Assembly (NCBI GenBank): GCA_035559815.1
Contig: DATMAT010000057.1
Location: forward strand, 6,359 to 70,358
DNA from: Thermodesulfobacteriota bacterium
GTDB taxonomy: Bacteria; Desulfobacterota_D; UBA1144; Nemesobacterales; CSP1-2
Reading direction: 5' to 3'
DNA length: 64,000 bases
Part shown: positions 8,302-34,925 of the stretch, piece after piece
Layout: each line of letters opens with the position of its first letter
Numbering within the stretch: the stretch's first letter is position 1
Program-made: the position numbers and the translations under genes
Notes under the pieces: generated by a model
What the model was told of the DNA's origin: nothing
Seen by the model: the letters and a program-made list of their open reading frames with translations, nothing else
Databases searched by the model: none

Positions 8302-8673
8302 ATGACTGATGAAGAAAGAAAATCCATAGCTTCGGAGTATCTAAAGAGGCTTGATAGAGGTGAAGATTTCTTCGAGCTTTTTGACGAAAATGCCGAGGTA
8401 TTCTTTCCCAGGTCGGGCGTCGCGGTAGGGGCTGATGCATACAAGAAGCTCTTCTCCGATTTAGCGGCGAAGGTGAAAAGGTTCAGGCATCATCATGCCT
8501 ATTTAAACTGGATAATTCAGGGCGACATGGTCGTGGCTGAAGGATCGAGCGAGGGAGAATTAAAGACCGGAGAAAAATGGACTGACAGCAAATGGTGCGA
8601 TGTATTTGAGATTAGGAACGGCAAGATTCAACGTCTCTACATATACCTGGACCCGGAGTACTCCAGATATTAA
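8302..8673 (+). CDS. SnoaL/NTF2-like small protein
   Basis: 123 aa. Size and pattern (KWCDVFEIRNGKIQRLYIYLD) are typical of the NTF2-like fold. Divergent from the LysR gene. Confidence 0.45.
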   Translation: MTDEERKSIASEYLKRLDRGEDFFELFDENAEVFFPRSGVAVGADAYKKLFSDLAAKVKRFRHHHAYLNWIIQGDMVVAEGSSEGELKTGEKWTDSKWCDVFEIRNGKIQRLYIYLDPEYSRY

Positions 8674-16979: not shown

Positions 16980-17711
16980 GTGATGGAAGAGGAAATTCAA
17001 AAGGCAAAAGAAATACTTAGAAACGCACGTGGGATTACCGTCCTCACCGGTGCGGGTATTTCCGCGGAAAGCGGTATTCCCACCTTTCGCGGAGAAGACG
17101 GCCTCTGGAAGAAATATAACCCTGTAGATGTGGATACCGCCGACGGCTTTAGACGGAATCCCCAGTATGTGTGGGAATGGTATAACGGCTTAAGGGAACT
17201 CATATCCACGAAAAAGCCAAATCCAGCCCATCATGCCCTTTTCAAACTGGAAAAGATAAAACCCTATTTTAGCATCATAACCCAGAACGTGGACGACCTT
17301 CATCGGGTCTCCGGAAACAAGAATATAATCGAATTACACGGCAACATCTTTCGGACCAGATGTGTTGAATGTTTACATGAAGAAGAAAACCGGGAGGTTC
17401 CGTTAGCCGAGATACCTCCACGCTGTAAAAAGTGCGGAGGACTACTAAGGCCTGCCGTTGTGTGGTTCGAGGATTACATTCCACTACCAATAATAGACTC
17501 ATGTCTTTTATCGATCGAGAATTCCGACGTAATGCTTATTATTGGGACTTCCGGATTGGTAGAACCTGCTGCTTCGATGGGCCTCGTAGCTAAGCATATC
17601 GGAAAGACGGTAATCGAGGTAAACCTGGAGGAGTCCACCCATTCTCAGAAGTACGACCTGGTTCTTTTGGGAAAAGCGGGAGAGATCTTACCAAGAATTA
17701 TCCCTGACTGA
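16980..17711 (+). CDS. cobB: NAD-dependent protein deacylase (Sir2 family)
   Basis: 243 aa. GAGISAESGIPTFRG, QNVDDLH, and a zinc ribbon CVEC...CKKCGG. Confidence 0.85.
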   Translation: MMEEEIQKAKEILRNARGITVLTGAGISAESGIPTFRGEDGLWKKYNPVDVDTADGFRRNPQYVWEWYNGLRELISTKKPNPAHHALFKLEKIKPYFSIITQNVDDLHRVSGNKNIIELHGNIFRTRCVECLHEEENREVPLAEIPPRCKKCGGLLRPAVVWFEDYIPLPIIDSCLLSIENSDVMLIIGTSGLVEPAASMGLVAKHIGKTVIEVNLEESTHSQKYDLVLLGKAGEILPRIIPD

Positions 17712-18340: not shown

Positions 18341-18439
18341 ACAAGTTTGATTTGCTAGAAAATTTAACCCCCGTCCTTGCCCACCGAACCTAAGCGTAAG
18401 ACATCAGTAATATCCTCTCAATTTAATCATCCTTATTGC

Positions 18440-18465
18440 GGAAATTTTTTGAAACTTTTCGTCTA
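18440..18465 (+). promoter_or_regulatory. ECF-sigma-type promoter motif, copy a
   Basis: GGAAATTTTTTGAAACTTTTCGTCTAAG. GGAA, a 16-nt spacer, then CGTCTA. Ends 37 nt upstream of the GGDEF gene ATG. Confidence 0.5.
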
Positions 18466-18502
18466 AGACTGGCTAAAGGATCAAAAAGGAGGGTGATGGG
18501 AG

Positions 18503-19555
18503 ATGAAGACTAAGGTGGTTTCTTCCGTTGTTAAGTCAGTCTCTGGCCCGGATACACAGCCATCTGTGCAGAGTAAAGAGCTGTCGACATACAATAACCC
18601 GGAGATTGAAGAGCTAAAGATAGTCAGAAATAAAGGGTCAGCGGCATACAAATTCCATACTTTAATATCATACATACCCCTGCCCAAGAGCTACCTCGGT
18701 AAAATCACCCTGCTTATATTTCTAGCCGGATATCTCCCCATCCTGGCTTTCGTACTTTATCTTTTAACTTCTCACCCGAACGACCCGGCTTCAAAGCTTC
18801 AGATTTTCGGCATCAGCCTCGCTTTTGCCCTTCTGGGGCTAGCCGTCACCGCTTACCCGCTGAAATTGCTGCTTTCATCGTTATTGGTAGTCTCTCGCGC
18901 CCTCGACCAGTACATAAACGATAAAAAGATTCCGACGTTGTCCACCAGCCAGATCGATGAACTGGAGAGATTAATGCTGGATATTGAATTTAAGATACTC
19001 GACCTCCAGGGGCACATCCGGTCACTCGAAAAAAGGTCTATGACGGACTATCTAACCGGAATCCAAAACCGGTACTCTGCAGAGAGGCAGCTTAAGGAAG
19101 ATATCGCCCGTGCTCAGAGAAGCGGAAAAGAAATCTCATTAATAATCCTGGATATCGACGAATTCAAGCTTATCAACGACCGTTACGGCCACGATGTGGG
19201 GGATATTTGTTTAAAGCATGTAGTCGAGATAATCCAGGGCGGCATACGCAAGGGAGACTGGCTGGGGAGATGGGGAGGAGATGAATTCGTATTATTACTC
19301 TTCGATTCTGATGAAAAATCCTCGAGAAAAATAGTGGAGCGCATTGGTGACGCGGTGAAGGAGCAACCGGCCTTGACACCCAAGGGCGAGATAAGCATGA
19401 GCCTGAGCGTGGGCATATGCCAGCACAATGGAAAAGACCAAGCGGAGGAGCTTTTCAAGAAGGCCGATTGTGCCCTTTTATTGGCGAAGCGATTAGGAAA
19501 GTCGCAAATAGTCTATTACTCCAATACCCTCCCTATCTCAGCTACACATACTTAG
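18503..19555 (+). CDS. Membrane diguanylate cyclase (GGDEF)
   Basis: 350 aa. Two TM helices, a coiled linker, the RWGGDEF active site, and an intact RKGD (RxxD) I-site 5 residues upstream of it. Confidence 0.85.
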   Translation: MKTKVVSSVVKSVSGPDTQPSVQSKELSTYNNPEIEELKIVRNKGSAAYKFHTLISYIPLPKSYLGKITLLIFLAGYLPILAFVLYLLTSHPNDPASKLQIFGISLAFALLGLAVTAYPLKLLLSSLLVVSRALDQYINDKKIPTLSTSQIDELERLMLDIEFKILDLQGHIRSLEKRSMTDYLTGIQNRYSAERQLKEDIARAQRSGKEISLIILDIDEFKLINDRYGHDVGDICLKHVVEIIQGGIRKGDWLGRWGGDEFVLLLFDSDEKSSRKIVERIGDAVKEQPALTPKGEISMSLSVGICQHNGKDQAEELFKKADCALLLAKRLGKSQIVYYSNTLPISATHT

Positions 19556-19804: not shown

Positions 19805-22123
19805 GTGGCAAATAAAATTGCTGGAATCAGAGAGAGACCTTTAAAATTAATCTTTATCTCACTTCTTTTAACCTCCTGCACCAGCGCTTTTTTAGTATTT
19901 CTCCTATCCGGCGGGCCTGGCGGACTGCCCATTGTTCCGGCGTTCATAGTTCCCGGAGCAAGGCAACTGGTGGCAACATCCAGCCACCCGCTTGTCCGAT
20001 TCTTCTCCGAGCCCCAGGTCGCTGCAGTGACGCCCGATAACTCCAAGGTTTACGTCACCAACCTAAGAAGCGACTCGGTATCGGTGATAGATACAGCAAA
20101 GGATAGAATAACGGCAACGATACCGGTTGGTAGAAATCCTTTCTCATTGGCCATAACACCAGACGGGACCAAGGTCTATGTGGCCAATTTCGGAAACCTT
20201 TTCCAGCCGGGAAACACCGTCTCGGTGATAGATGCTGAAACGGACGCCGTCGTCGCCACGGTTAGAGTGGGGATTAACCCGGGAGCAATAGCCATAACCC
20301 CGGACGGCTCTAAAGCCTATGTGGCAAACTCCGGATTCTCCGCCTCCGATAACACCGTCTCGGTGATAGATGTGGCCACAGACCAGGTTATCGCCACGGT
20401 AATTGTGGGAATTAATCCCGGGGCGTTAGCAATAACCCCGAATGGCTCAAGAGTCTACGTAAGCAACACCATCAGCAGCACCGTCTCGGTGATCGATACT
20501 TCAACCGACGAGGTAATGGATACGATAAACGTCGGGTTTAACCCAGCGGGGATAGCTATTACTCCCGACGGTTCCAAGGTCTATGTGGCCAACAATCTAA
20601 GCGATTCCGTGTCGGTGATAGACACGTCCAGCAACCGGGTTATCACCACCATTCCAGCAGGGACAGAGCCCTTGATTGTAGCAATAACACCCGACGGCTC
20701 GAAGGCTTACATCACCAGCTTAAGTAGCGACTCGGTCTCGGTGATAGATGTATCAAACGACGCCGTTGTCAACACAATTCCGGTCGGCAATATTCCGGTG
20801 TCCATAGGGATAACGGCGGATAGCTCTAAAGCCTATGTAGGAAACTGTAATTGCGGCATAGCCGACCCGGACAGTCCGGACACCGTATCGGTAATAAACG
20901 TATCGATGGATGAGGTTATTGCCACGATTCCGGTCGGATTTGGGCCGCTCGGCCTGGCCATAACATCAGACGGCTCCAAGGTGTACGTGCCCAGCTCCAA
21001 CGGCAGCACCGTATTTGTGGTCGACACAACTACAGACGAGGTTATTTCGGTAATACCGTCGGGGACAGGACCGGCGGCCATAGCGATAACGCCCGACGGC
21101 ACCAAGGTCTACGTGAGCAACTTTAATAACCCGGACAGTCCAGGCAATACCATATCAGTAATAAATACCGAAACAAACACAGTCGTTGATGAAGTCGAAG
21201 TAGGCATTGGGCCTGCTGCGCTGGCCATAACCCCGGATGGTTCAAAACTGCTGGTTGCTAATTACGGGAGTATATCCGAGCCTGGAAATACCATATCGGT
21301 GATAGAGATTGAGACGAACACGCTGATTGCCGACTTAACTGTCGGAACCGGCCCGATGGCTATTGCCATAAGCCCCGACGGCTCTAAAGCCTATGTGGCT
21401 AATTTTGGCAGTAGCAATTCAGTCGGCAATACCGTGTCGGTGATCGACCTTACTAGCAATACCGTTACACAAAGCATCGGTGTCGGTAATGGGCCTGCCG
21501 GAATAGCCATAACGCCCGACGGCTCACAGGTTTATGTCACCAACCTGGGCGGCGTCGAGGATCCTCCCGATTCCAGCGCTAGAAGCACGGTATCGGTAAT
21601 AGATACCGCAACTAATTCAGTAATCGCTGAGATACCGGTAGGAATTGGTCCCCTGGGCATAGCCATAACCCCGGACGGAACCAGGGCTTATGTGGCCAAC
21701 TTCGGCGGCATTACTTCTTTTAGCGACTTCGCCGCTGGAAATAAGGTGTCGGTCATAGATGTAATAAATAACATATTGATCGGTGAAGTGAACCTCGGAG
21801 ATGGTTTTCTAGGTCTTGGGCCGGCCGGCGTAGCCATAACCCCGGACGGATCTACCATATACGTAACCAACTTCGACATTGTTAATGAGGAGCTATTGGG
21901 CTCGGTCAAGGTTTCTACCCCCGGGGATACTATATCGGTGATAGATTCGACAAGTAACACGGTTACCGAAACTATCAACGTCGGAGAGAGGCCGCTGGGG
22001 ATAGCGATTACCCATGATGGAACTAAGGCTTATGTGGCTAACTACTTCGGCAATAGCGTTTCGGTGATAGATGTTTCGACCAATAGTGTGGCCGAGGAGA
22101 TACCAATTAAAAATGAAAAATGA
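19805..22123 (+). CDS. YVTN-family beta-propeller repeat protein (~17 repeats)
   Basis: 772 aa with a GTG start and N-terminal TM/signal. About 40-aa units of ITPDGSKVYVAN...NTVSVID..T. The repeats are also conserved at nucleotide level (ACCGTCTCGGTGATAGAT recurs). Confidence 0.8.
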   Translation: MANKIAGIRERPLKLIFISLLLTSCTSAFLVFLLSGGPGGLPIVPAFIVPGARQLVATSSHPLVRFFSEPQVAAVTPDNSKVYVTNLRSDSVSVIDTAKDRITATIPVGRNPFSLAITPDGTKVYVANFGNLFQPGNTVSVIDAETDAVVATVRVGINPGAIAITPDGSKAYVANSGFSASDNTVSVIDVATDQVIATVIVGINPGALAITPNGSRVYVSNTISSTVSVIDTSTDEVMDTINVGFNPAGIAITPDGSKVYVANNLSDSVSVIDTSSNRVITTIPAGTEPLIVAITPDGSKAYITSLSSDSVSVIDVSNDAVVNTIPVGNIPVSIGITADSSKAYVGNCNCGIADPDSPDTVSVINVSMDEVIATIPVGFGPLGLAITSDGSKVYVPSSNGSTVFVVDTTTDEVISVIPSGTGPAAIAITPDGTKVYVSNFNNPDSPGNTISVINTETNTVVDEVEVGIGPAALAITPDGSKLLVANYGSISEPGNTISVIEIETNTLIADLTVGTGPMAIAISPDGSKAYVANFGSSNSVGNTVSVIDLTSNTVTQSIGVGNGPAGIAITPDGSQVYVTNLGGVEDPPDSSARSTVSVIDTATNSVIAEIPVGIGPLGIAITPDGTRAYVANFGGITSFSDFAAGNKVSVIDVINNILIGEVNLGDGFLGLGPAGVAITPDGSTIYVTNFDIVNEELLGSVKVSTPGDTISVIDSTSNTVTETINVGERPLGIAITHDGTKAYVANYFGNSVSVIDVSTNSVAEEIPIKNEK

Positions 22124-22198: not shown

Positions 22199-24127
22199 AT
22201 GAAATCAGTTTTGCCAAATGTAATAGATAGAAAGTCACCTCATCTAATTCTTCTCATTGCCGCTCTATTACCGCTAATTTTTAATTTAGCCTGTGATGGT
22301 GGAGAGGACGGAGAAGGAAAGCCTAGCGTCAGTCGTAAAATATTCGTCGCCAGTTCGGGCGGGGACAAAATAACCGTCTTCAATGCCGACGATGATGGTG
22401 ACGCCACACCGATAAGAACAATCGGGTCAAATACCGGGCTCATTAGACCTCAAGCAGTCTACGTTGACACAGTCAATGATGAAATATTCGTGGCCAACAC
22501 CGGGAATAACACAATTACCGTATACAGGAAAGGAGAGGATGGAGATGTAGCTCCTTTAAGAAGCATAGGTGGAGATAACACATTCCTTTTTCGCCCGGTA
22601 GCGATATTCGTCGATACCCAAAATAATGAAATTTTCGTGGCTAACCTATTTTCAATCACAGTGTATGGAAGGACAGACCAAGGGAACGTCTTCCCCACAA
22701 GGACTATAGAAGGAGAAAATACGGGGCTTTCTTTTCCCAGCGGAATATTCGTGGATGCAGAGAACGATGAGATTTTCGTATCCAACACCGAGAACGACAC
22801 CGTCACCGTGTACGGACGGTCGGCAGGGGGAGATGCCTCGCCCTTGAGGACACTATTTGTATTAGATGGAAGCGATAACGGTATCCATGAGACATTGGGT
22901 TTATTCGTCGACGCAAAAAATGGAGAGCTCTATGTGATTGATGCCGTTTTACCGGACTTTCCATCACCAGTCCCGATTACCCGGCCTATCAAGAGCACGA
23001 TAAAGGTGTATGGAAGAGATGCCGAGGGAAATGAACCTCCTTCAAGAACCATCGAGGGAGAAAGCACCGGACTTTTCAATCCTTCCGGCATCTATGTCAA
23101 TAATAATGAGATATTTGTGATTAACTCCTTTAATAACACCCTGACCGTCTATGAAAGAGAAGCCGAGGGGGACGCACCACCTTTGAGAACGCTTACCATA
23201 TTTGACTCTAACGACGCCGGCTTTCGGGCGTTCCGGGGGATGTCTTTGAGCATATCCGTGGATACCGAGGACGGCGAGATATTCGTTTCTAATCTTAACG
23301 ACACAATCACGGTTTATGGTAGAATGGCGGAGGGAAACACGCTTCCAATTAGAATCATAGGATCCCGCACCGGTCTTCTAGACCCAAACTGGATATACGT
23401 GGATACGGAGAACAAGGAAATATTTACCAGTAACTTTTTCAGCCAGCAGGTCACCGTGCACGGAATAATTGACGAAGGGAATGTTGCACCACTAAAAACC
23501 ATACCTCAAGGGCTTTTATCCCCGCAGGGAATTTTTGTGGATACTAAGAATGAGGAGATATTCGTTTTAACCAACGCCGCCGACACTGTCACTGTGTATG
23601 GAATGAGAGATAACAAACCTTTAAGGACGATATTCGGTGGAAACACCGGATTATCCTCTCCCCGGGGTATATACGTCGATATAGAAAGTAACGAGATATT
23701 CGTCACAAACCTGGGCAACGACACCATCACTGTCTACGACAGGACGGCTGAAGGAGACGTAAGCCCTTTGCGGATTATAGGCGGGGATAATACCGGCCTC
23801 CTCGGACCACAGGGAATATTTGTAGATAGAGAAAATGATGAGATTTTCGTTTCTAACTTTTTTACGATCACCGTATATAATAGGACTGCTGAAGGAGACG
23901 CCACCCCTTCCAGGACCATAGATGGGTTTAACACCGGGCTGGACGGGCCAACCGGGATATTCGTGGATGGGGAGAGCAATGAGATATTCGTCACGAACTT
24001 CAACAACAACAGCATCACTGTTTACGACAGGGCGGCGGAAGGGGATGTTGCTCCCTTAAGAAGCTTAGCCGGTCCTCACACCGGGCTTTCATTGCCGTTC
24101 GGAATATTCGTTGCCGATTCGCCATAG
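22199..24127 (+). CDS. NHL-like beta-propeller repeat lipoprotein (~14 repeats)
   Basis: 642 aa. Lipobox IFNLAC. About 46-aa units of P.GIFVD..N.EIFVSN..N.TITVY.R.AEGD..PLRTI.G.NTGL. Confidence 0.7.
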   Translation: MKSVLPNVIDRKSPHLILLIAALLPLIFNLACDGGEDGEGKPSVSRKIFVASSGGDKITVFNADDDGDATPIRTIGSNTGLIRPQAVYVDTVNDEIFVANTGNNTITVYRKGEDGDVAPLRSIGGDNTFLFRPVAIFVDTQNNEIFVANLFSITVYGRTDQGNVFPTRTIEGENTGLSFPSGIFVDAENDEIFVSNTENDTVTVYGRSAGGDASPLRTLFVLDGSDNGIHETLGLFVDAKNGELYVIDAVLPDFPSPVPITRPIKSTIKVYGRDAEGNEPPSRTIEGESTGLFNPSGIYVNNNEIFVINSFNNTLTVYEREAEGDAPPLRTLTIFDSNDAGFRAFRGMSLSISVDTEDGEIFVSNLNDTITVYGRMAEGNTLPIRIIGSRTGLLDPNWIYVDTENKEIFTSNFFSQQVTVHGIIDEGNVAPLKTIPQGLLSPQGIFVDTKNEEIFVLTNAADTVTVYGMRDNKPLRTIFGGNTGLSSPRGIYVDIESNEIFVTNLGNDTITVYDRTAEGDVSPLRIIGGDNTGLLGPQGIFVDRENDEIFVSNFFTITVYNRTAEGDATPSRTIDGFNTGLDGPTGIFVDGESNEIFVTNFNNNSITVYDRAAEGDVAPLRSLAGPHTGLSLPFGIFVADSP

Positions 24128-24381: not shown

Positions 24382-24401
24382 TTAAGACAATGCCAAACTT
24401 A

Positions 24402-24427
24402 GGAAACTTGTCTCAACTTTTCGTCTA
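24402..24427 (+). promoter_or_regulatory. ECF-sigma-type promoter motif, copy b
   Basis: GGAAACTTGTCTCAACTTTTCGTCTAAG. Ends 139 nt upstream of the TPR-CHAT gene. Confidence 0.5.
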
Positions 24428-24566
24428 AGAAGGAGAAAAACAAGCAGGTTTTGATGGTGAAACTGGGTCAGGATGATATCTTTTCGATTAAATTGCATTA
24501 AACTAAATTCTGGCAATCGCAATACTATTTCATACTTTAGCCATCCTTTTAAACCATCAGAAAAAA

Positions 24567-27392
24567 ATGATTGATTTTTCTTTCCTTCATCAAAAGAGCA
24601 TTAATTCCTATCTAGTCATAATGCTGATTACTTTATCTCTACCCTCGTGCGTAACGATAAAAAAAGCGGATATTAAAGTTCAGGACGAAGGAGCAGTACG
24701 GTTAATCACCGAAGGCGGGAAATTGTACGACCGGGGAAGATATGATGAAGCCCTGGGAAAATTCTCTGCGGCGGAGGCAGAGACCAGCTTGCCCCAGGAT
24801 AAAATTAGGATTGCGGACATATTATCCAAAGGCGGCTTCGACCTCTTCGAGAAAAAGCTCTTTGATGCTGCACTTTCCTACTACAACCAATCACTGAAGA
24901 TAAACAGGGTTTTAGATAACAAGCCGGGACTGGTTAATGACTACAGTTACATGGGAAGTATTTACACGGATATAGGAAAATACGACGAGGCGATCCTTCA
25001 CTTCAATCAGGCCATCGAACTGCAAAAGGACATGAATGATAAAGCCGGAGTAGTTCACAACCTGAATAACCTCGCCAATCTCCACGGCTACCTGGGCGAC
25101 TACCAGGAATCTATAAATCTTCTAAACCGGGCCCTTCAGATTAGCCGGAGCACCGACGTCCCGACCCAAACGGCAAGAACACTGATAAATCTTGCCGCTA
25201 TCGATTTTCGCCTGAGAAACTACGAAAAATCTATTGATTACCTAAACCAAGCACTTCAGATTGCGGATAGGGTAAAAAATGAAAACCTGAAAGCGGAAGC
25301 CCTAAACCTAACCGGCGTCGTCTACAGAGAGCAGGGTGAATTCGATAAGGCTTTAGCCAATTACCTTGCCGCGCTGAAAATCAACAAGAAAGAGGGCGTT
25401 GAAGCTGCAATCATAACCAGCCTTAGCACTATTGGCGAATTGTATAAGGAGACTGGAAGATACGGCCAAGCTCTTCAATACATTCAGGAATCTCTCCACC
25501 TGAGCAGGGAATCGAAAAACCAACTGATGACCGCCGTCAACCTGAATTACATGGGGGAGGTGAGATACAAGCAGGGAAAATACGACCAGGCTCTCAATCT
25601 TTACCAATCATCCTTGGGAATCTTTGAAGAGCTTGGGTTCAGGGACCGGATAGCCAGAAGCTACAACAACATCGGTTACCTGAGAGGGGAAACCGGGCAG
25701 TGGGATTCTGCGATCGAGAACCTGGATAAGGCCATCTCCATCTATAAAGACCTGGGAGACAGGGAGTGGGTCCGCATCTCTCTCTTTGGCCGGGGACTTT
25801 ATTCAGAAGAAAAAGGGGACCTTCTTTCCGCAGAAAAAAACTACAAGGAGGCCGTGGATATATTTGAATCGGTTAGAGAGGACGTCGCCGGGGGCCTGGA
25901 AGCAGAGCAAACCTTCAGCGACGTGAACGTGGAGATTTACGAGAGGCTGGTGTCATTGCTCCTGCGGCTTGGGAAAGACGAGGAAGCGCTCGAGTATATA
26001 GAAAGGAGCAGGTCAAAGAACCTCCGGGACACGTTTCTAAGGAGCGGTATCAGCTCTTTTGACGAGAGAACCAGGGGACTCCTTGAAAGATTTGATGAGC
26101 TTTTCAGAAAAGAGGCTTCCATAAACTACCAGTTGGTGAGGGAAAGAGCAAAGGCATTGCCTAACCCGGAGAAGATAGACAATTTAGTAAAAACATTGGC
26201 CAGGACTAGGGAAGAATTTATGAGAATAAATTCTGCTTTAGAGTCCGAAAATCCCAAGCTGTACGGCCTGCTCAGTATAAAACCGGAAGACGTTGCCGAA
26301 CTGGTAAAAAAGAATAGGCTCCCCGGAGACGTTATCTTTGTAGAGTACTTTATCACCGATAAAGAGACCTACATATTTCTCATGAGCGACAGGGACCTGA
26401 AGGTCAAGACCGTTTCTGCGAAGAAAGAGGAACTTGCAGAATTGGTCAAACTGTTTAGAGACCTGATAGAGCTTAATAAATCCATACCCAGCAACCGCTG
26501 GCGGGATGACCAGAGTGAGGAATACGAACAGGCTATAAAACCGCTCAAGAAGACATCATCGACCCTCTACGCCTACCTCATAGAGCCAATCGAGGCTGAG
26601 ATTGCCCCGGCCGAAACCATAGCCGTGATTCCCTTCGGCTCGCTCCATTACCTCCCATTCAACGCCTTGGCAAAAGAAAGGGATGACGGCACGTTGGAAT
26701 TTCTCATAGAAAGGAAGAAGCTCGTCTATATTGTTTCCGCCTCCGCCAATTACCTGGACGTAGTCCTGGGAAACGGCCGTAAAAGAGGAATCGAGAGTCT
26801 GGTTGCCTTTGGCAACCCGGACCTTGGGGAACCGGACCTCGCCCTTCCCTATTCCCAGGAGGAAGTTAAAGCCATAAAAACACTCTTTCCAAACGCCACC
26901 GTGTTCCTGGGAAAGGATGCTACCAAATATAATTTCGAGAGCAACTGGGGGGTGAATGACATAATCCATATGGCCACGCATGCAGTCGTCAAAGGAACGC
27001 CGTCAATACTCTTGGCCCCTTTAGGCACGGGCAGTCTTACCCTGAAAGACATTACCGGGCTGCCCCCTGCCGAGAACACCCATCTTGTGGTGCTCTCCGC
27101 GTGCCAGGCGGCGGTTGTAAGTGACGAAGACGGCCATGCTGCCGAGGAGCTAAACAGTATAGCTCTCGCTTTCAGCATGGTAGGCACCCCATCGGTTATT
27201 GCCACCCTCTGGAGGATAGAGGACAAAGCTACATTTGAGCTGATGGAGGATTTTTATGAGAATTTAAAGAAAGAGGGCAGATTCGATTACGAGGCGTTGA
27301 GAAGGGCACAGTTAGAGATGCTTAAGAGGCCGGATAAATACGGCCAGCCATTCTACTGGGCGCCCTTTATTCTTATGGGGGTATGGGAGTAG
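24567..27392 (+). CDS. TPR-repeat / CHAT-domain (caspase-like) lipoprotein
   Basis: 941 aa. Lipobox LSLPSC, about 8 TPR units (NLANLHGYLGDYQESINLLNRALQI and similar), and a C-terminal CHAT domain with His (IIHMATHAV) and Cys (VVLSACQAA) dyad contexts. Confidence 0.85.
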   Translation: MIDFSFLHQKSINSYLVIMLITLSLPSCVTIKKADIKVQDEGAVRLITEGGKLYDRGRYDEALGKFSAAEAETSLPQDKIRIADILSKGGFDLFEKKLFDAALSYYNQSLKINRVLDNKPGLVNDYSYMGSIYTDIGKYDEAILHFNQAIELQKDMNDKAGVVHNLNNLANLHGYLGDYQESINLLNRALQISRSTDVPTQTARTLINLAAIDFRLRNYEKSIDYLNQALQIADRVKNENLKAEALNLTGVVYREQGEFDKALANYLAALKINKKEGVEAAIITSLSTIGELYKETGRYGQALQYIQESLHLSRESKNQLMTAVNLNYMGEVRYKQGKYDQALNLYQSSLGIFEELGFRDRIARSYNNIGYLRGETGQWDSAIENLDKAISIYKDLGDREWVRISLFGRGLYSEEKGDLLSAEKNYKEAVDIFESVREDVAGGLEAEQTFSDVNVEIYERLVSLLLRLGKDEEALEYIERSRSKNLRDTFLRSGISSFDERTRGLLERFDELFRKEASINYQLVRERAKALPNPEKIDNLVKTLARTREEFMRINSALESENPKLYGLLSIKPEDVAELVKKNRLPGDVIFVEYFITDKETYIFLMSDRDLKVKTVSAKKEELAELVKLFRDLIELNKSIPSNRWRDDQSEEYEQAIKPLKKTSSTLYAYLIEPIEAEIAPAETIAVIPFGSLHYLPFNALAKERDDGTLEFLIERKKLVYIVSASANYLDVVLGNGRKRGIESLVAFGNPDLGEPDLALPYSQEEVKAIKTLFPNATVFLGKDATKYNFESNWGVNDIIHMATHAVVKGTPSILLAPLGTGSLTLKDITGLPPAENTHLVVLSACQAAVVSDEDGHAAEELNSIALAFSMVGTPSVIATLWRIEDKATFELMEDFYENLKKEGRFDYEALRRAQLEMLKRPDKYGQPFYWAPFILMGVWE

Positions 27393-27398
27393 GTTGAC

Positions 27399-27468
27399 AA
27401 TTTCGGATTTCGGAATGCGGATTTAAGTATTTCTTCCGTCCGCAATCTGCAATCCGAAATCCGAAATT
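27399..27468. repeat. Inverted arrays of 7-bp repeats forming a long imperfect hairpin
   Basis: Left side: AATTTCGG ATTTCGG AATGCGG ATTT. Right side: CCGCAAT CTGCAAT CCGAAAT CCGAAAT T. The outer 16 bp (27399-27414 and 27453-27468) are perfectly complementary. Sits between the CHAT stop and promoter motif c. Confidence 0.55.
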
Positions 27469-27474
27469 AAACGG

Positions 27475-27499
27475 GGAAGTTCCCCAGGCTTTTCGTCTA
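27475..27499 (+). promoter_or_regulatory. ECF-sigma-type promoter motif, copy c
   Basis: GGAAGTTCCCCAGGCTTTTCGTCTATA with a 15-nt spacer. Ends 47 nt upstream of the anti-sigma ATG. Confidence 0.5.
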
Positions 27500-27546
27500 T
27501 ACTAATATGTGTTAGTTTAAGTATCGAATTTTTCGGAGATTACTTT

Positions 27547-28152
27547 ATGAAATTAGAAAAAGAAGATGAAATATTGGGTGCGGTGGCGATATCCCTGATT
27601 GAAAGAAAAGGGGGAGAATGCCCTTCTGACGAGGAATTCGCCTTATACCTGGACAGAAAGTTAAACCGAGAGAGGAAAAAGACCCTCATCTCCCACTTTA
27701 TTTCCTGCCCTGCCTGCCGGGACAGACTGGCCGTCTCGAACTTGGCTCTCGAAACCGCCAGAGAGGAAAACATCCTAGAGAAATTACTGACTTTTTTCGG
27801 CCGTCCGCTGGTCATAGCGCCCGTAGCCATCGTAATACTCTTCCTGGCGGCTATAACCCTGAACGTTTATCTAAAATCGTCCAATTTTCCTGACACCGAA
27901 GAAAGATACAGGGGTGGAGATTTAGTCAGCGTAAACCAGGTTGATTTAACCCCTGGCCTCTTGAGAATTATCCAAGAGGGCGACCAGGGGGAATTAAAAA
28001 ATAACCTTGCCAAAGAGCTGCCTCCTCACTCTGAGGTATCGGATATAGTGGTGGAAGAGAGGCTTAAGTCTCTAAAGGACTTAAAGGAGAATGAGAAGAT
28101 AACCTTAATACTTTACAGCGATGGTTTATTGAAGGTGAAGCTAACCCAATAA
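27547..28152 (+). CDS. zf-HC2 anti-sigma factor, single-pass membrane protein
   Basis: 201 aa. HFISCPAC fits the H-x3-C-x2-C motif. TM helix LVIAPVAIVILFLAAITLNVYL, then an extracytoplasmic tail. Confidence 0.65.
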   Translation: MKLEKEDEILGAVAISLIERKGGECPSDEEFALYLDRKLNRERKKTLISHFISCPACRDRLAVSNLALETAREENILEKLLTFFGRPLVIAPVAIVILFLAAITLNVYLKSSNFPDTEERYRGGDLVSVNQVDLTPGLLRIIQEGDQGELKNNLAKELPPHSEVSDIVVEERLKSLKDLKENEKITLILYSDGLLKVKLTQ

Positions 28153-28154
28153 AC

Positions 28155-28946
28155 TCATAGCGTTTGTTCAAATATCTCCTTGATATCGTCGTTGGTTATC
28201 CCCTTTTCTCTCATGTATTTCCCCAGGCTCTTCAGTATCTTTTCTATTCTTTTGTACACCTTTTTCTGGTCAAGCCCGGGAATAGCCCCGGATATCTCCC
28301 TTGCGCTCAAATCTTGCTCGAAATAGAGCTGTAGTATCAGAATATCCTCCTCTTCGAGCCTGTGAACCTCCTCCCTGAGCACTTTCAACACCATCTCCTT
28401 TTTCTCTTTGGCCTCGGTGGTTATCAGACTCTCCTCCGGATTTGCCCCCCTACCCTCGGAGGCAATACCATCTACCTGTTCCCCGAGAAAAACGGTTCGC
28501 TTTTCATCGATCTCATCCATATTCACCCTACTCTCCCTTATCCTTTTTTCCACTTCATCAACCCTTATTTGAGCCTCCTCCGGGGGGATTTTAAACTCCG
28601 CTTGAATGGAATTCTCTACCCAGCCGGGAGACAAATTGTGATAAAAGAAGAGTTTAAAAACATGACGGTTTATCTCGTCGAACGCCCAGTAATACTTGGG
28701 TAAGACCTTATATCCGAATTGACTTCTCCTAAAATCAATGATGAGCTTCCCGGTAACGCTCTGGAGAAATGTCTTAAAGCTCGCCTCCCCGCGGAAGGAG
28801 CCTATCCTCCGGCTATTATCCTCATGTAGCTTCTCCCACACGTACAGGAAACAATCATTGGCCAGGTCGGGGTTGTTAGAAAAGCTCCTTCTACACATAG
28901 ACCGAACTACCAGTATGTCCTCATCAGTTAAGGTCCTATTATCCAT
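28155..28946 (-). CDS. Sigma-70-family ECF-like sigma factor, unusually long (263 aa)
   Basis: Region-2-like FLYVWEKL...FRGEASFKTFLQSVTGKLIIDFRR and region-4-like ILILQLYFEQDLSAREISGAIPGLDQKKVYKRIEKILKSL, separated by ~120 aa that include an acidic linker. Confidence 0.65.
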   Translation of the reverse strand: MDNRTLTDEDILVVRSMCRRSFSNNPDLANDCFLYVWEKLHEDNSRRIGSFRGEASFKTFLQSVTGKLIIDFRRSQFGYKVLPKYYWAFDEINRHVFKLFFYHNLSPGWVENSIQAEFKIPPEEAQIRVDEVEKRIRESRVNMDEIDEKRTVFLGEQVDGIASEGRGANPEESLITTEAKEKKEMVLKVLREEVHRLEEEDILILQLYFEQDLSAREISGAIPGLDQKKVYKRIEKILKSLGKYMREKGITNDDIKEIFEQTL

Positions 28947-29121
28947 TTTATGGTCGGGAAAAAGTAGCTATCTACGGGGTTAATCTGCTAATTCGCTGAT
29001 TAAAAGCCGGGGCTGGAAGCTTATCAATCCTCCATCTGATAATCTCGGCCAAATTCGCAGACCACCATCCGTCCTCGATTTTGAAAAAGATTTTAATACC
29101 ATACGGTCGTAATTAAAAGGG

Positions 29122-29146
29122 GGAATTTTCTCAAGCTTTTCGTCTA
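29122..29146 (+). promoter_or_regulatory. ECF-sigma-type promoter motif, copy d
   Basis: GGAATTTTCTCAAGCTTTTCGTCTATA with a 15-nt spacer. Ends 101 nt upstream of the LuxR-type gene GTG. Confidence 0.5.
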
Positions 29147-29247
29147 TATTCGAACAAGAGAACGAGGAATAAAGGTTATTAAAACCGGATGGATTCAGAC
29201 ATGATTAAAAACCCGAATTTCCATTTTAGCATGAAAAAGGAGGTACC

Positions 29248-29886
29248 GTGGTGAGAGAATCGAATAATCCGATACAAATAGCCTTAGCATCGCGCTCCCA
29301 GTTTTTTCTCCAAGGAATAAAAAGGATTCTCCAGGATGAGGGCGACATAAAGATAGTTGCCGAGGTTATCGATTCAAAAGAGGTCAAGAAATGTATTAAA
29401 GAGATAAAACCGGACTTTATATTTATCGACAATAGAACCCCGGAGTTTAGCATCCAGGATCAACTGAATTCCTTGATTAATAAAAATTGCACTACCCGGT
29501 TTATCTTATTCGACACCTATAGGGGGGAAAAACATTTTTCACGAAACATCGTATATATAAGCAGGGAAGCAGGCTCCAAAGAATTAATCGAGAGCGTGAG
29601 AAAAAACAGCCGGAGTAATGAAGGTGCTCAAGACAGGAAAGATTACTCGGGCCATGACAAAAATAGGCTTACAAACAGGGAAGCAGACATAGTTAATTTA
29701 ATCAAAATCGGCATGAGCAACAAAAGAATTGCTCAAAGACTCTCCATAAGGGAAAAAACGGTGAAGGCAAACCTGACCAATATTTTTACGAAACTACAGG
29801 TCCAAAGCAGGTACCAGCTCCTAGTGCGGGCCAGGCAGCAAGGCCCTAATAATTCTTCAGAACATGAATTTTCAAAAACCGGCTAA
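29248..29886 (+). CDS. LuxR/NarL-type regulator with an atypical (pseudo-)receiver domain
   Basis: 212 aa. C-terminal HTH LTNREADIVNLIKIGMSNKRIAQRLSIREKTVKANLTNIFTKL. The receiver-like N-terminus has IALASRS where the acidic DD pair normally sits, and retains FIFIDN. Confidence 0.7.
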   Translation: MVRESNNPIQIALASRSQFFLQGIKRILQDEGDIKIVAEVIDSKEVKKCIKEIKPDFIFIDNRTPEFSIQDQLNSLINKNCTTRFILFDTYRGEKHFSRNIVYISREAGSKELIESVRKNSRSNEGAQDRKDYSGHDKNRLTNREADIVNLIKIGMSNKRIAQRLSIREKTVKANLTNIFTKLQVQSRYQLLVRARQQGPNNSSEHEFSKTG

Positions 29887-29903: not shown

Positions 29904-30344
29904 ATGGCTACAGCTCAAAACCTGGAAAGGAACGGCGCAACAGCGGATATAAAAGCAATATGCAGGTGGATACAAAAAAAGCTGGGCGTAAGCCAGCCTG
30001 AAACACTCATAGTACCCATATATAACCACATAAACGAATACAGCCCAAGGTACATCGCCAGACGCCTCGCCGAAAAAGACACCAAGCTGAGGGTATTTTT
30101 CCACTTTAAGGACATGAACGATTACATCACCCTTTCGAGTAATGGGCAATTAAATGTGAGAGACGGGCAAGAAGAGTTGTTCAAGGCCTGGGGAATCTCT
30201 CAATTCAGAGACCTTAACCCTCAAACCATCTTCCAGGAGCTTGAGGGCAGAATAAGAAAAATAAACGTTATATCCTTCTCCGATTATATGAATCATTCCT
30301 TTAACTCCTACTCCGACTTTATAGAGTGGCTGTCTGAAGGGTAG
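29904..30344 (+). CDS. Hypothetical protein, likely co-transcribed with the LuxR-type gene
   Basis: 146 aa. GGAGG Shine-Dalgarno and a 17-nt gap after the upstream stop. No recognisable domain. Confidence 0.4.
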   Translation: MATAQNLERNGATADIKAICRWIQKKLGVSQPETLIVPIYNHINEYSPRYIARRLAEKDTKLRVFFHFKDMNDYITLSSNGQLNVRDGQEELFKAWGISQFRDLNPQTIFQELEGRIRKINVISFSDYMNHSFNSYSDFIEWLSEG

Positions 30345-30399
30345 ATTCAAGTAGCGATTATGTTTCATCCCTCTACTCAATATTTTCATCAGAAGACAG

Positions 30400-30700
30400 G
30401 ATTAGTTCTAAGAATGAAGCACCCCGCGGCAAGCCGCAGTGTATCAATACATACGCATGTACTCTAACGCGACATTGCGAGAGTTGCGATGCAATATGTT
30501 TAGATTCCTCACGTTTGTTCGGAATGACAAAAGCGGTTTTGCAGTCTCGGAAACGCAAATAGGGTTCTGTCATTTCGAAGGGAGAAATCTTAGTTTTTGG
30601 GAAACCTTTTGTCACATTGCTTCGTCGCGGAGTCTATCCTGAGGAAATCGAAGGACTCCTCGCAATCAGCGGAAACTCTGTGGCAAGCCACAGCGAATTC
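30400..30700. repeat. MITE-like repeat tract
   Basis: Contains AGATTCCTCACGTTTGTTCGGAATGAC, GTCATTTCGAAGGG and TTGCTTCGTCGCGG...CGAAGGACTCCTCGCAAT (compare 18170-18235), plus small hairpins GCGGCAAGCCGC and TGTGGCAAGCCACA. Confidence 0.5.
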
Positions 30701-30720
30701 TCAAGTTAAATTCATCAGAG

Positions 30721-30746
30721 GGAAATATCCATGAACTTTTCGTCTA
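30721..30746 (+). promoter_or_regulatory. ECF-sigma-type promoter motif, copy e (orphan)
   Basis: GGAAATATCCATGAACTTTTCGTCTAGT. No credible ORF for ~720 nt downstream. Confidence 0.4.
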
Positions 30747-30951
30747 GTACTTACGTAAGACAGGGATGATAAATCAGAACTAAGGCAACTACATACTCTC
30801 CAAACCTCCTGGCCGGCGCCGTTCCTCGCCCCATCGAACACGGCGCTGGCTGGCTAAGAAAGCTTGAAGTACCGGACAGTCAAATATGCTTTAATCTCGT
30901 CTTAAAGGTGGTTAATTATCCTCGCTCCCGGGTCAAGATGTTTTTATTAGC

Positions 30952-31335
30952 TTGGCCTGAAGGTAATGAAAGTACTTCAATGACGGAATAGGAAAAAGCA
31001 ACCCCTCTTTAATTCTCGTCTCAATAAGCCTGTCCTAAGCCCAGTCGAAAGGGCTATATCAAGCACGGTCGAAGGGTTGAAGTATGTCGATTTTGTCATT
31101 CCGAGTCTTGTCCCGAACTAACGTGAGGGAGCTTGCCAGGAATCTTAAGTAATAGCTTACTTATCTTCCTAACCAATACCTTAAGATTTCTCACGTTCGT
31201 TCGAAATGACATCCTCACTCTTTAATCCCACCTATAGACCCGCCCTGAGCATGCTCGAAGGGGCTGCCCTTAGGAGTCAAATTAGGGGAGAATACAAGGG
31301 GGTAAGAGGTTATTTAACAAATAGGTTCAGGACCG
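30952..31335. repeat. Second copy of the 16734-type element, split by a ~267-bp nested insertion
   Basis: Left half 30952-31017 and right half 31285-31335 align with 16734-16866. The hairpin loop is replaced by 31018-31284, which itself contains a GTCATTCCGAG...CGAAATGAC element at 31095-31210. Confidence 0.55.
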
Positions 31336-31472
31336 GTCAGGGCTGAAAATGGCAGGGTAAGAAATGATCCCTCCGAATAACAAATTACCCAAGCTCAGGA
31401 GCTTCACCAAAGATTGAAATTTCCGATTACCAATGTAATTTTCTAGGGGTAAACTCGCTGGGTAAGCACTTA

Positions 31473-33620: not shown

Positions 33621-34094
33621 CTAAACAAAACAGATGCCCCCATATCCGGGTAGCGTCACAGTGGAACAGGACGCACCGACAAAGGGAATCGGAACACAAA
33701 TTCTATTTCTGCAGAGGCAGGGAGTAGTAGAGAAAAATGTCATAATTGCAGTTCCGGCGATCTGTCCCGATACGCTCGATGTGCGTGCTATAGCGCCCGG
33801 CATATATGCAATCAAGTTACGATCACATTGGCAATCAAGATATCCGCGGCGACCGTAGCAGAGGTCATGTTCCCTACATACTGCATCGACTGCGTCTATG
33901 GGCGGTGTATTTCCGGTTGGATCACCGAATCCGGGCCCGCAGTAATTGCCGTAAACCGGGACGCTGAGTTGTTGCGGCAATACCGGATCTTGTTTGGAGC
34001 GTAGGTTTATCTTTACGCCTTTATTGTCAATGCCGTAACGCTTTATTTGCCTGCCTAAGCTGGCCTCCGCTTTAAATCCTGGCACCTTGTTCAT
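33621..34094 (-). CDS. Leader-bearing protein P8 with a phospholipase-A2-like domain (157 aa)
   Basis: AAAGGAG Shine-Dalgarno. N-terminus MNKVPGFKAEASLGRQ. YCGPGFGD, then about 17 aa, then CREHDLCY, which is the secreted-PLA2 Ca-loop and His-Asp motif arrangement. Confidence 0.7.
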   Translation of the reverse strand: MNKVPGFKAEASLGRQIKRYGIDNKGVKINLRSKQDPVLPQQLSVPVYGNYCGPGFGDPTGNTPPIDAVDAVCREHDLCYGRRGYLDCQCDRNLIAYMPGAIARTSSVSGQIAGTAIMTFFSTTPCLCRNRICVPIPFVGASCSTVTLPGYGGICFV

Positions 34095-34118
34095 TTCATT
34101 CAACTCCTTTTTTTGTAT

Positions 34119-34925
34119 TCACCGGTCGTAGTAAGGTGACATCTTTGTAACCAAGAACGGAAACTCCGACCACAAAAGCGCAATGGCACCTGTTACAAAT
34201 GGGGCTGCAGCACTAGTTTCTCCAAATGTGAGCGACTTGCCATTAGCCCCGAGGCTGGTAATGTTGTCGCCGGGAGCGCTTAGACCTCGCTTTCCGATAG
34301 AACTTCCTAGGTTCGAGTAGTTAATCGGTCTACCTTGAAGGTCGCAGGCAACAACCGGAATAACCCACGTGTGACCGGTAACGGCAGAACTTCCGATAGT
34401 CCCCTGATTCCCAGCCGCCGCAACAACAATAACACCACCCCTTGCAGCATAATCTAGAGCCTTTTCTAATTCGCGCTCACCTTTAGATGATGGTTGTGCA
34501 AGTGCAGCGCTTAGGTTTATTACACGCGCACCTGCATCAATGGTCTCTATGATTGCCCCTGCAAGCTCCTCTGGGGTTGCGCTTGGCAGGGATTTAGCGG
34601 GCTCACCCCAGGTCTGTCTGTTTCCCGATGCCCTCTCTGAAAAAATGGGACGTACAAGCAGTGTGCAATCAGGACAGATTGCCGGAGCTAGAGAACCCCT
34701 CCTACCGCACAAGATGCCTGCCACAAACGTCCCATGCATACAGGCAGCACTGCTTGCTACGGTGTATGTCCCATCCAGTTTTCCAGGAACCTCGCGGATA
34801 TTTTCACCTGTAAGGCTGGGATGGTTAATTATGATGGGGCCATCTATTAACCCAACTGTAATTTCGGGTCTACCGCTTGTGAGTTCCATCAATGCTGTGA
34901 GCTTGACCACATCCAAAGGATTCAT
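34119..34925 (-). CDS. Subtilisin S8 peptidase, second copy, C-terminally truncated and fused to the tail of the PatG-DUF-like gene (possibly decaying)
   Basis: 268 aa, highly similar by eye to the peptidase at 41599-42495 up to LLWSEFP. It then ends FLVTKMSPYYDR, identical to the last 12 aa of the protein at 40062-41006. GLIDGP, HGTFVAG and AAAGNQG are kept, but the Ser motif reads GETSAAAP (Gly to Glu). No obvious Shine-Dalgarno. Confidence 0.65.
   Translation of the reverse strand: MNPLDVVKLTALMELTSGRPEITVGLIDGPIIINHPSLTGENIREVPGKLDGTYTVASSAACMHGTFVAGILCGRRGSLAPAICPDCTLLVRPIFSERASGNRQTWGEPAKSLPSATPEELAGAIIETIDAGARVINLSAALAQPSSKGERELEKALDYAARGGVIVVAAAGNQGTIGSSAVTGHTWVIPVVACDLQGRPINYSNLGSSIGKRGLSAPGDNITSLGANGKSLTFGETSAAAPFVTGAIALLWSEFPFLVTKMSPYYDR

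Follow-up and report, generated by a model that had tools for sequence, protein, structure and literature searches.

Why should the genes for a sigma factor and its presumed anti-sigma factor run towards each other, when canonical extracytoplasmic function (ECF) sigma/anti-sigma pairs are co-transcribed and positively autoregulated (PMC7826278)? The question is raised by a stretch of 64,000 nucleotides (nt) from a Thermodesulfobacteriota bacterium, called the window below. In it AS201, a predicted transmembrane anti-sigma factor of 201 amino acids (aa), and SIG263, a sigma-70 family factor of 263 aa, are encoded tail to tail. The answer proposed here is that the two genes belong to an envelope-signalling module, conserved and specific to its lineage, which centres on an ECF-like sigma factor with three domains and on a zinc-binding transmembrane anti-sigma factor. 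We give this reading a probability of about 0.6.

Computation shows the order of the genes and how far it is conserved, their domains and export signals, the zinc motif, the distribution of a promoter motif and the sigma4-like middle domain of the sigma factor. Two features go beyond the initial annotation of the window and are more interesting than those it described. One is the context, a split TPR-CHAT module resembling DdvA of M. xanthus; the other is the sigma4-like third domain. It is the exported TPR-CHAT and beta-propeller proteins encoded beside the pair, missed by the initial annotation, that give the sigma/anti-sigma pair its meaning.

A convergent pair in a conserved gene order

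The initial annotation described convergent sigma and anti-sigma genes with a 2-nt gap, and the open reading frames (ORFs) agree with it in coordinates, orientation and gap (Table 1). The same tail-to-tail layout is found in nine of nine independent loci, namely the window and L001, L003, L005, L006, L007, L008, L010 and L011, with a sigma identity of 54-64%. In each the order is g772, TPR-CHAT and AS201 in one direction, followed by the sigma gene in the other. Here g772 encodes a beta-propeller repeat protein and TPR-CHAT a caspase-like protease. The g772 gene belongs to the core of the module, being present in every locus whose sequence reaches its position; the L007 contig stops within the TPR-CHAT gene, and the g772 position lies beyond it. 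Because the layout recurs in every independent locus, convergence is, judged by sequence comparison, a lasting trait of the lineage, not a peculiarity of a single genome.

The gap between the two stop codons is less constant than the order. It measures 2 (in the window), 13, 14, 22, 24, 34, 35, 35 and 36 nt in the nine loci, and its sequence is not conserved. No terminator was found at the AS201/SIG263 junction by a consensus terminator scan of positions 27300-29400, in which the totals were not above those of shuffled sequences.

The SIG263 family consists of 43 clusters of about 262 aa with 54-66% identity. Its hosts are Candidatus Dadabacteria and metagenome-assembled genomes (MAGs) labelled Thermodesulfobacteriota or Deltaproteobacteria. 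A hypothetical protein with exactly the sequence of the window's AS201 is encoded in a Thermodesulfobacteriota MAG.

A promoter motif and the wiring of the circuit

According to the initial annotation, only the anti-sigma gene carries an ECF-type promoter motif. Within the pair this is so in all nine loci; in the region it is not, as five copies are present and would form a local regulon. The motif, GGAAA-N9-aaCTTTTCGTCTAA, occurs in the window always on the plus strand, always between genes and always within 18.4-30.8 kb. Its core is TT[TC]CGTCTA, with GGAAA at a fixed distance 5' of the core. Across loci the consensus is gGGAAA-N9-aaCTTTTCGTCTAAt, and conservation extends 6-7 nt 5' of CGTC. 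The shared 11-mer CTTTTCGTCTA was observed five times against about 0.03 expected (128 kb, both strands, by our own arithmetic). A looser pattern gave four matches against 0.33 expected, a number reached in none of 100 shuffles.

The distribution of the motif is similar in the related loci. It lies upstream of the AS201 gene in nine of nine, and upstream of g772 or TPR-CHAT in seven of the eight loci scanned (the window, L001, L003, L006, L008, L010 and L011, not L005), standing 5' of the g772 orthologue in L001, L006, L008, L010 and L011. A copy also stands between the sigma gene and its upstream neighbour in all nine loci, always directed outward from the sigma gene and degenerate in L001. 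In the sigma gene's own orientation, no copy was found in any of the nine. For the window, this bears out the earlier statement that no copy faces the sigma gene from upstream (28947-29120), since the copy at 29114-29151 points away. The proposal of negative feedback without positive autoregulation likewise fits a motif that is found at AS201 in every locus and never at the sigma gene. Comparison thus supports a circuit in which the anti-sigma factor would be induced and the sigma factor would not be autoregulated.

A different element stands upstream of the sigma gene and directly abuts the outward motif copy. It reads CCCTTTTAATT...TATTAAAATCTCT, and in seven of the nine loci its arms are invariant and its spacer is variable. 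In the window this TTTTAA-N17-TAAAAT element is a candidate housekeeping-type promoter that may serve the sigma gene. The sigma ATG has no Shine-Dalgarno sequence in any of the nine loci (28947-28970 in the window, and the equivalent positions), while the AS201 and LuxR genes have GGAG(G). A weak or unusual translation start for the sigma factor may be the consequence.

Three points weigh against this account of the wiring. TTTTAA/TAAAAT is palindromic and may be an operator instead of a promoter; the element is absent in L001 and L005; and recognition of the motif by SIG263 is proposed from a single kind of evidence, the co-localisation of motif and gene.

The -35 region is itself palindromic in many motif copies, as in GGGGAAGTTCCCC (window 27473-27485), AGGGAAATTCCCT (L006, about 17853), GGGAAGATCCC (L003, about 12464) and GGGAAATCCC (L008, about 16462). 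The palindrome could be a second protein-binding site, or could be related to the presence of two sigma4-type domains in SIG263. A weaker motif-like site with two mismatches, GGAAAGAATACCTCGGCATTTTCGTCAA, is found at 8381-8408 on the minus strand, about 250 nt 5' of a 306-aa ORF (7207-8127, minus strand).

Does the orientation matter?

The wiring had been attributed to the convergent arrangement. Distant relatives speak otherwise. In L014, L016, L018 and L020 the sigma and anti-sigma genes are co-directional, and a CCGTCT[AT][AT] element nevertheless lies in the spacer that runs from the sigma stop codon to the anti-sigma start codon. In L020, a further outward-facing motif copy is found upstream of the sigma gene. 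Because these co-directional relatives already carry a separate promoter element for the anti-sigma gene, convergence appears to be secondary. The pairing of sigma factor and ZAS protein, together with the separate anti-sigma promoter, probably predates the Dadabacteria family, and convergence would be a later rearrangement. It may still add antisense or collision effects, because there is no terminator between the genes.

The strongest alternative, a serious one although we put it below an even chance, is that the wiring is real and the convergent orientation neutral: the ancestor of the Dadabacteria would have fixed an inversion, with each gene acting as an independent transcription unit, as in the co-directional relatives. 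The separate CCGTCT[AT][AT] element in co-directional relatives counts against a functional role for convergence and in favour of this view, and so does a gap that ranges from 2 to 36 nt and is not conserved in sequence. Yet the orientation has been kept in nine of nine species-level loci across about 45% protein divergence, and without a terminator between the genes the two transcripts must overlap, unless transcription stops within the coding sequence.

An exported protease next to a membrane anti-sigma factor

Anti-sigma factors of the ZAS type carry the motif H/C-x(23-26)-H-x3-C-x2-C in an N-terminal helical domain. AS201 has this motif, with the spacing C-x24-H-x3-C-x2-C, and its ligands C25, H50, C54 and C57 are invariant in an alignment of 19 AS201 orthologues. 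A single transmembrane (TM) helix at about aa 87-111 is followed by an extracytoplasmic domain, which is the class I/ZAS topology. In the AlphaFold2 (AF2) model, helices flank the zinc ligands, the TM helix covers aa 90-111, a low-confidence linker spans aa 108-121, and an alpha/beta domain covers aa 126-199 with a predicted local distance difference test (pLDDT) score of about 85. This C-terminal region of about 90 aa is well conserved in the same alignment, in which a hydrophobic segment is also seen. Within the linker, which is predicted to be flexible and lies next to the membrane, E119-x-x-R122-G is conserved. We take this segment to resemble the separase ExxR cleavage consensus, and regard it as a candidate CHAT cleavage site only.

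A few results make the assignment less secure. The match of AS201 to Pfam zf-HC2 (E = 0.004, 17.7 bits) is under the gathering score of 22.2 bits, and the matches to the NCBIfam RsrA and antisigmaE models are weak. Overall pLDDT is 69.5 for AS201 and 69.6 for SIG263, a moderate confidence in both cases. For the fold of the exported domain, a Foldseek search with the AS201 model gave no match at E <= 0.001.

The protease encoded upstream is predicted to be exported. The TPR-CHAT protein has the catalytic motifs H801-x3-H805 and VVLSAC846, in which His and Cys are conserved among the orthologues examined, and the lipobox Cys after its hydrophobic signal is conserved in six of six orthologues examined. 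Because TPR-CHAT, g772 and g642 all start with lipoprotein signals, the sensory side of the module is predicted to be extracytoplasmic. The C-terminal domain of AS201 would lie in the same compartment as these lipoproteins, provided that the zinc domain faces the cytoplasm, as sigma binding demands. A sequence search of TPR-CHAT against the Protein Data Bank (PDB) gave only generic TPR proteins among the matches listed; DdvA and Csx29 were not retrieved.

Is the protease a part of the sensing apparatus or one of its products? TPR-CHAT and the beta-propellers could be sigma-induced outputs, with AS201 inactivated by zinc/thiol oxidation or by a DegS/Prc-type protease. We consider this possible but doubtful. 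Three observations favour it. A sigma-type promoter, of the sort that regulon outputs have, stands before the lipoprotein genes; a ZAS domain can act as a redox sensor (PMC11506125), and AS201 has its weak match to RsrA; and there is no sequence match to DdvA or Csx29 past the generic CHAT and TPR domains. On the other side, TPR-CHAT precedes AS201 in an invariant order in nine of nine loci, the His/Cys catalytic dyad is conserved, the two proteins face the same compartment, and the conserved E-x-x-R-G lies in the low-confidence juxtamembrane linker. A related long sigma factor with a ZAS partner, moreover, adjoins a Peptidase_C14 caspase.

A sigma factor with a third domain

SIG263 exceeds the cutoff of one model, TIGR02937, which is generic for sigma-70 (54.3 bits, cutoff 42.9). 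The match extends over aa 14-244 but uses just 151 model positions, so that an insertion of about 80 aa is implied. The layout begins with sigma2 at about aa 8-77, followed by a sigma4-like middle part at aa 84-140 and an acidic disordered linker at aa 141-175. The C-terminal part consists of sigma4 at about aa 183-247, or aa 170-247 in the AF2 model, with a helix-turn-helix (HTH) starting at about aa 183-199, and an extra helix at aa 252-262. The AF2 model places three helices at aa 91-139, between sigma2 and sigma4, in a middle domain of about 65 aa. The ORF, the TIGR02937 span and the AF2 model therefore confirm the initial description of a 263-aa sigma factor with a long inter-domain stretch and an acidic linker. 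The second HTH-like segment noted there is also real, and Pfam region-4 matches and profile alignment assign it to the sigma4 type, as follows.

When the middle domains of distant relatives are isolated, 12 of 54 match Sigma70_r4_2 (best E = 1.6e-5) and 9 of 54 match Sigma70_r4. The sigma3 family PF04539 is not among the families listed for SIG263, for 147 relatives or for the 54 isolated middle domains. In hhalign, a profile of the middle domain and the sigma4 profile of the superfamily itself align over 56 columns with 91.9% probability (E = 7e-7). Of the two controls, one paired the middle domain with sigma2 and the other paired sigma2 with sigma4, and each gave less than 1%. Because of the region-4 matches, the lack of a region-3 match and the alignment to the family's own sigma4, the middle domain is, as far as profiles can tell, a sigma4-type tri-helical HTH at the place where group 1-3 sigma factors have sigma3. 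A true sigma3 was considered and rejected on these same three grounds.

The middle-domain profile found nothing significant in the PDB, its weak matches (PhyR, sigma factors) falling within their sigma4 regions. An hhalign comparison of the sigma family with the single L005 sequence that has sigma70 r2, r3 and r4 gave no usable alignment, sigma2 and sigma4 included, and was uninformative. The idea that the middle domain reads an extended -10 (aaCTTTT) was also considered.

The label ECF-like, used in the initial annotation, holds in part. SIG263 is of the sigma-70 family, and its sigma2 and sigma4 are ECF-like. In the operational definition, an ECF sigma factor has Pfam sigma2 and sigma4, no sigma3 (PF04539) and a stretch of no more than 50 aa separating sigma2 from sigma4, a limit intended to keep out cryptic third domains (PMC7826278). 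PF04539 is indeed missing from the matches reported for SIG263, but the other two properties are not found. At least 100 aa, including the folded three-helix domain, separate the end of sigma2 (about aa 77) from sigma4. PF04542 scores 15.9 bits against a gathering threshold of 24, PF04545 scores 12.9 against 24.1, and PF08281 is not reported; these sub-threshold scores also tell against an ECF-like identity.

A different classification was suggested by structure. The best full-length Foldseek matches to the SIG263 model are B. subtilis SigD (E = 5.5e-6) and SigB, S. aureus SigB, sigmaS and FliA, all of them three-domain sigma factors, aligned over 240-280 columns with TM-scores of about 0.25; no two-domain ECF is among the top 50 matches. 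A search of the sigma profile against PDB sequences found only weak sigma4 matches, to WhiG, FliA and SigL. SIG263 might then be an ordinary group 3 (FliA/SigB-like) factor with a divergent sigma3, and the motif might be used by another ECF sigma factor encoded elsewhere. That is improbable. The domain families and profile alignment described above place the middle domain with sigma4, and the group 3 models score far below their cutoffs (TIGR02479, the FliA family, 26.9 against 189.6 bits; TIGR02980, 15.3 against 234). In addition, the motif accompanies a SIG263-family gene in all the loci, with its copies grouped nearby, and its -10 core CGTCT also occurs beside the distant relatives.

SIG263 is not isolated. 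At 50% identity, the family reduces to one full-length representative and two fragments, and in an exhaustive profile search the next relatives have E values of at least 2.7e-27. The superfamily comprises 581 representatives at E <= 1e-10 in a profile search. Of the top 148 cluster representatives, 131 are at least 240 aa long (median 274 aa), the middle segment measures 60-76 aa in 135, and 98 to 110 match Pfam regions 2 and 4. The middle domain of SIG263 thus typifies, by sequence, a large unclassified group of sigma factors of 250-290 aa. No description of a sigma2/sigma4-like/sigma4 architecture was found in the literature searched, of which coverage was incomplete.

Are the two proteins partners?

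Evidence for pairing can be sought in relatives where the surroundings differ. In four of four informative distant relatives (L014, L016, L018 and L020), a long sigma gene is followed by a co-directional gene for a single-pass HxxxCxxC membrane protein. One of these four partners matches Pfam zf-HC2, and the L016 partner aligns with the AS201 family across both ZAS domain and TM helix (E = 2.5e-5), the first ligand showing the usual His/Cys swap. In L014, L018 and L020, sigma and ZAS-TM genes are adjacent in contexts without CHAT. SIG263 and AS201 are a plausible cognate pair because their genes adjoin in nine of nine family loci and because the distant relatives pair with ZAS-TM proteins in four of four cases.

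Conservation of gene neighbourhood is the one line of support for binding of SIG263 by AS201, a point that tempers this conclusion. It is very unlikely, all the same, that AS201 is a membrane adaptor or TPR-CHAT substrate and a chance neighbour of the sigma gene, for although its zf-HC2 score is sub-threshold and the two genes are not co-transcribed, its CHCC ligands never vary and are spaced as in a ZAS domain, and the adjacency recurs in unrelated CHAT-free contexts.

Proposed mechanism

These features suggest the following sequence of events for the module. Expression of the sigma gene would depend on a non-ECF element of its own, TTTTAA-N17-TAAAAT; it would not be autoregulated and would do without a Shine-Dalgarno sequence. 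AS201 would tether the sigma factor at the membrane by its N-terminal CHCC zinc domain, while the exported beta-propeller and TPR-CHAT lipoproteins would sense an extracytoplasmic signal. The signal would then inactivate AS201, the likeliest route being cleavage by CHAT in the juxtamembrane linker (site 1, in trans), followed by intramembrane proteolysis.

The released sigma factor would transcribe from GGAAA-N9-aaCTTTTCGTCTAA promoters. Those of the sensor and protease genes would provide positive feedback on sensing, and that of the AS201 gene negative feedback and reset. The outward promoter would drive a LuxR-type regulator in the window and, in most relatives, a second sigma factor, of the sigma70 type, as the output of a cascade. 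Without a terminator, induced AS201 transcription would run antisense through the sigma gene and act as a second brake. Four of these steps are ones that we infer: recognition of the motif by the sigma factor, binding of SIG263 by AS201, CHAT-mediated cleavage of AS201 and antisense interference on the sigma gene.

Relation to known systems

The closest characterised system is DdvS/DdvA. M. xanthus DdvA consists of a CHCC-zinc anti-sigma domain, one TM helix and a periplasmic TPR-CHAT region of about 900 aa; a published proposal is that DdvA cleaves its own juxtamembrane linker, in trans, ahead of RseP (PMC11506125). The ddvS and ddvA genes form a DdvS-dependent operon (PMC6061681). The module of the window resembles it in the CHCC zinc domain, the single TM helix, the flexible juxtamembrane linker and the extracytoplasmic TPR-CHAT with its His/Cys dyad, and also in having several sigma-dependent promoters, predicted here, clustered round the locus. 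However, TPR-CHAT (941 aa) and the ZAS-TM protein (201 aa) are encoded by separate genes in nine of nine loci, not as a single polypeptide. The exported domain of AS201 is just about 90 aa long, so that cleavage would be between two proteins, in trans. Furthermore, ddvS-ddvA is co-transcribed and autoregulated, whereas the genes of the window converge and the sigma gene has no motif. DdvS is described with sigma2 and sigma4 only, whereas SIG263 has a third domain.

In type III-E craspase (Cas7-11, Csx29, Csx30, Csx31 and RpoE), too, a TPR-CHAT protease is in genetic linkage with a sigma factor and with the protein restraining it. Its components are cytoplasmic and RNA-guided, whereas the protease of the window is exported, and Csx30 is not a ZAS-TM protein. 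The craspase family models, for the sigma factor and Csx29, give weak matches well below their cutoffs in the window (NF041237, 33.3 against 300 bits; NF041236, 18.9 against 100 bits). The ORFs examined in the window and the gene tables for the related loci include no cas-like gene. Near the module there is no clustered regularly interspaced short palindromic repeat (CRISPR) system and no cyclic oligonucleotide-based antiphage signalling system (CBASS); PADLOC gave generic TPR and HTH matches only. A defence island was rejected as an interpretation, as PADLOC returned no defence-specific matches.

Some distant relatives have other neighbours. In L014 (1-5715), a long sigma/ZAS pair lies beside a giant TIR-beta-propeller protein and a trypsin/kinase protein; in L016 (4116-6542), the Peptidase_C14 caspase beside the pair has a DUF4384 domain. 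The superfamily set includes one representative with a TIR domain and one with a TRADD-like N domain. These neighbours and domains hint at a link to conflict or NLR-like systems.

With RpoE/RseA/DegS/RseP and SigR/RsrA, the pair shares an ECF-like sigma2 and sigma4, a promoter of the shape GGAA.../CGTC, and a zinc anti-sigma domain with a TM helix. By analogy with RpoE/RseA, site-1 and then site-2 proteolysis would be the likely route here. The pair differs from canonical ECF systems in being convergent and in having only the anti-sigma gene in the regulon. SIG263 also adds a sigma4-like domain of about 65 aa and an acidic linker of about 35 aa, which break the 50-aa rule.

Group 3 factors (FliA/SigD, SigB/SigF) are alike in their length of about 240-260 aa, in a three-domain layout, which SIG263 shows in its AF2 model, and in their place among the best Foldseek matches. 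An anti-sigma gene within the sigma factor's own regulon also has a precedent there, in flgM. The middle domain of SIG263, on the other hand, is sigma4-like and not detectably sigma3, and AS201 is a ZAS-TM protein, not of the FlgM or RsbW-kinase type.

Features and neighbouring genes

Table 1. Coordinates of the module, its promoter elements and adjacent features in the window.
Feature	Position	Strand	Description
Motif copy 1	18433-18470	+	GCGGAAAT-N8-AACTTTTCGTCTAAG; end of -10 block 36 nt 5' of GGDEF start codon
GGDEF diguanylate cyclase	18503-19555	+	Membrane-anchored; Pfam GGDEF E = 1e-41; hydrophobic N-terminal segments; putative regulon member
g772	19805-22123	+	YNCE/lactonase-type beta-propeller repeat protein; lipoprotein signal LLLTSC
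g642	22199-24127	+	NHL-repeat beta-propeller lipoprotein; FNLAC lipobox; in window and in L003/L004
Motif copy 2	24395-24432	+	TAGGAAAC-N8-AACTTTTCGTCTAAG; 138 nt 5' of TPR-CHAT gene
TPR-CHAT	24567-27392	+	941-aa caspase-like protease lipoprotein; Pfam CHAT 181 bits, TPR_12 204 bits
Imperfect long hairpin	27399-27468		Between TPR-CHAT stop and AS201 promoter; -33.4 kcal/mol, z = -4.8, 0 of 200 shuffles as stable
Motif copy 3	27467-27504	+	CGGGGAAG-N8-GGCTTTTCGTCTATA; putative AS201 promoter; -10 at 27494-27500, ending 46 nt before ATG
AS201	27547-28152	+	201 aa; ZAS-type single-pass transmembrane anti-sigma factor; ORF confirmed
Stop-to-stop spacer	28153-28154		2 nt; without terminator
SIG263	28155-28946	-	263 aa; three-domain sigma-70 family factor; ORF confirmed
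Sigma upstream element	29090-29118	-	TTTTAA-N17-TAAAAT, about 137 nt before ATG; equivalently the inverted repeat TTTTAAT-N14-ATTAAAA
Motif copy 4	29114-29151	+	AGGGGGAAT-N8-AAGCTTTTCGTCTATA; abuts sigma element back-to-back, faces LuxR gene
LuxR/GerE-type regulator	29248-29886	+	Degenerate receiver; putative output gene in window and L003
g146	29904-30344	+	Conserved hypothetical protein, 146 aa, 3' of LuxR gene
Motif copy 5	30714-30751	+	GAGGGAAAT-N8-GAACTTTTCGTCTAGT; -10 at 30741-30747; about 725 nt without ORF before AMP-binding gene

The hairpin in front of the AS201 promoter is specific to the genome of the window; in the other loci the -35 box abuts the TPR-CHAT stop codon.

The gene that follows the outward promoter differs between loci. 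In six of nine (L005, L006, L007, L008, L010 and L011) it encodes a conserved sigma-70 family protein of 362-382 aa, with 43-52% identity between clades and Pfam regions r2, r3 and r4 in L005 (6670-7818, minus strand). A sigma-70 type gene in this position suggests a sigma cascade. No homologue of it was found in all 64 kb of the window. In L001, a DUF4394 protein is encoded after the outward-facing promoter. In L003, as in the window, the LuxR/GerE regulator has a degenerate receiver and precedes a 146-aa protein. The LuxR-type regulator of the window has IALASRSQ in place of the acidic DD pair of a receiver and keeps the Asp in 'FIFID'; its N-terminus is probably a pseudo-receiver.

Motif copy 5 could drive a non-coding RNA, or could be a remnant. 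No Rfam family was matched in the whole window, the region after this copy included, and the corresponding gap in L003 is about 150 nt long and without a motif. The intergenic region 30345-31472 contains repeats resembling miniature inverted-repeat transposable elements. Examples are ttcctcacgtttgttcggaatgaca (about 30508) and tttctcacgttcgttcgaaatgaca (about 31188), and a copy in inverted orientation lies at about 31095-31130. These repeats appear to have enlarged the region.

Among the other neighbours (including 33621-34925, minus strand, and 16980-17711, plus strand) are subtilase (Peptidase_S8), phospholipase A2-like and Sir2-family genes, which have no motif or synteny tie to the module.

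Significance

A wider proposal can be put forward tentatively, as one that we think unlikely to hold in full. In it, SIG263 would represent a large unclassified sigma-70 class that the 50-aa rule excludes. The ancestral wiring would be the reverse of that in canonical ECF systems, a constitutive sigma factor with a sigma-induced ZAS anti-sigma factor, to which Dadabacteria would have added a TPR-CHAT site-1 protease acting in trans, and convergence would have brought antisense repression. If true, the module would be a free-standing relative of the DdvA mechanism and of the logic that leads from Csx29 to a sigma factor in craspase.

Classification of sigma factors. The superfamily would be a sizeable group between groups 3 and 4 that lies outside current ECF catalogues. 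Its sigma4-type third domain raises the question of what the domain does in the holoenzyme, where it may substitute for sigma3, make an extra promoter contact or serve as a docking site for the anti-sigma factor.

A natural split DdvA. The cleavage of an anti-sigma factor by CHAT, as proposed, would become approachable in trans, with two separable proteins.

Dynamics of the response. A sigma circuit with negative feedback only would be predicted to give pulse-like or adaptive responses, as against the bistable or amplifying behaviour of autoregulated ECF factors.

Evolution. The module may be an evolutionary bridge between TPR-CHAT signalling at the envelope and the CRISPR-associated craspase/RpoE module.

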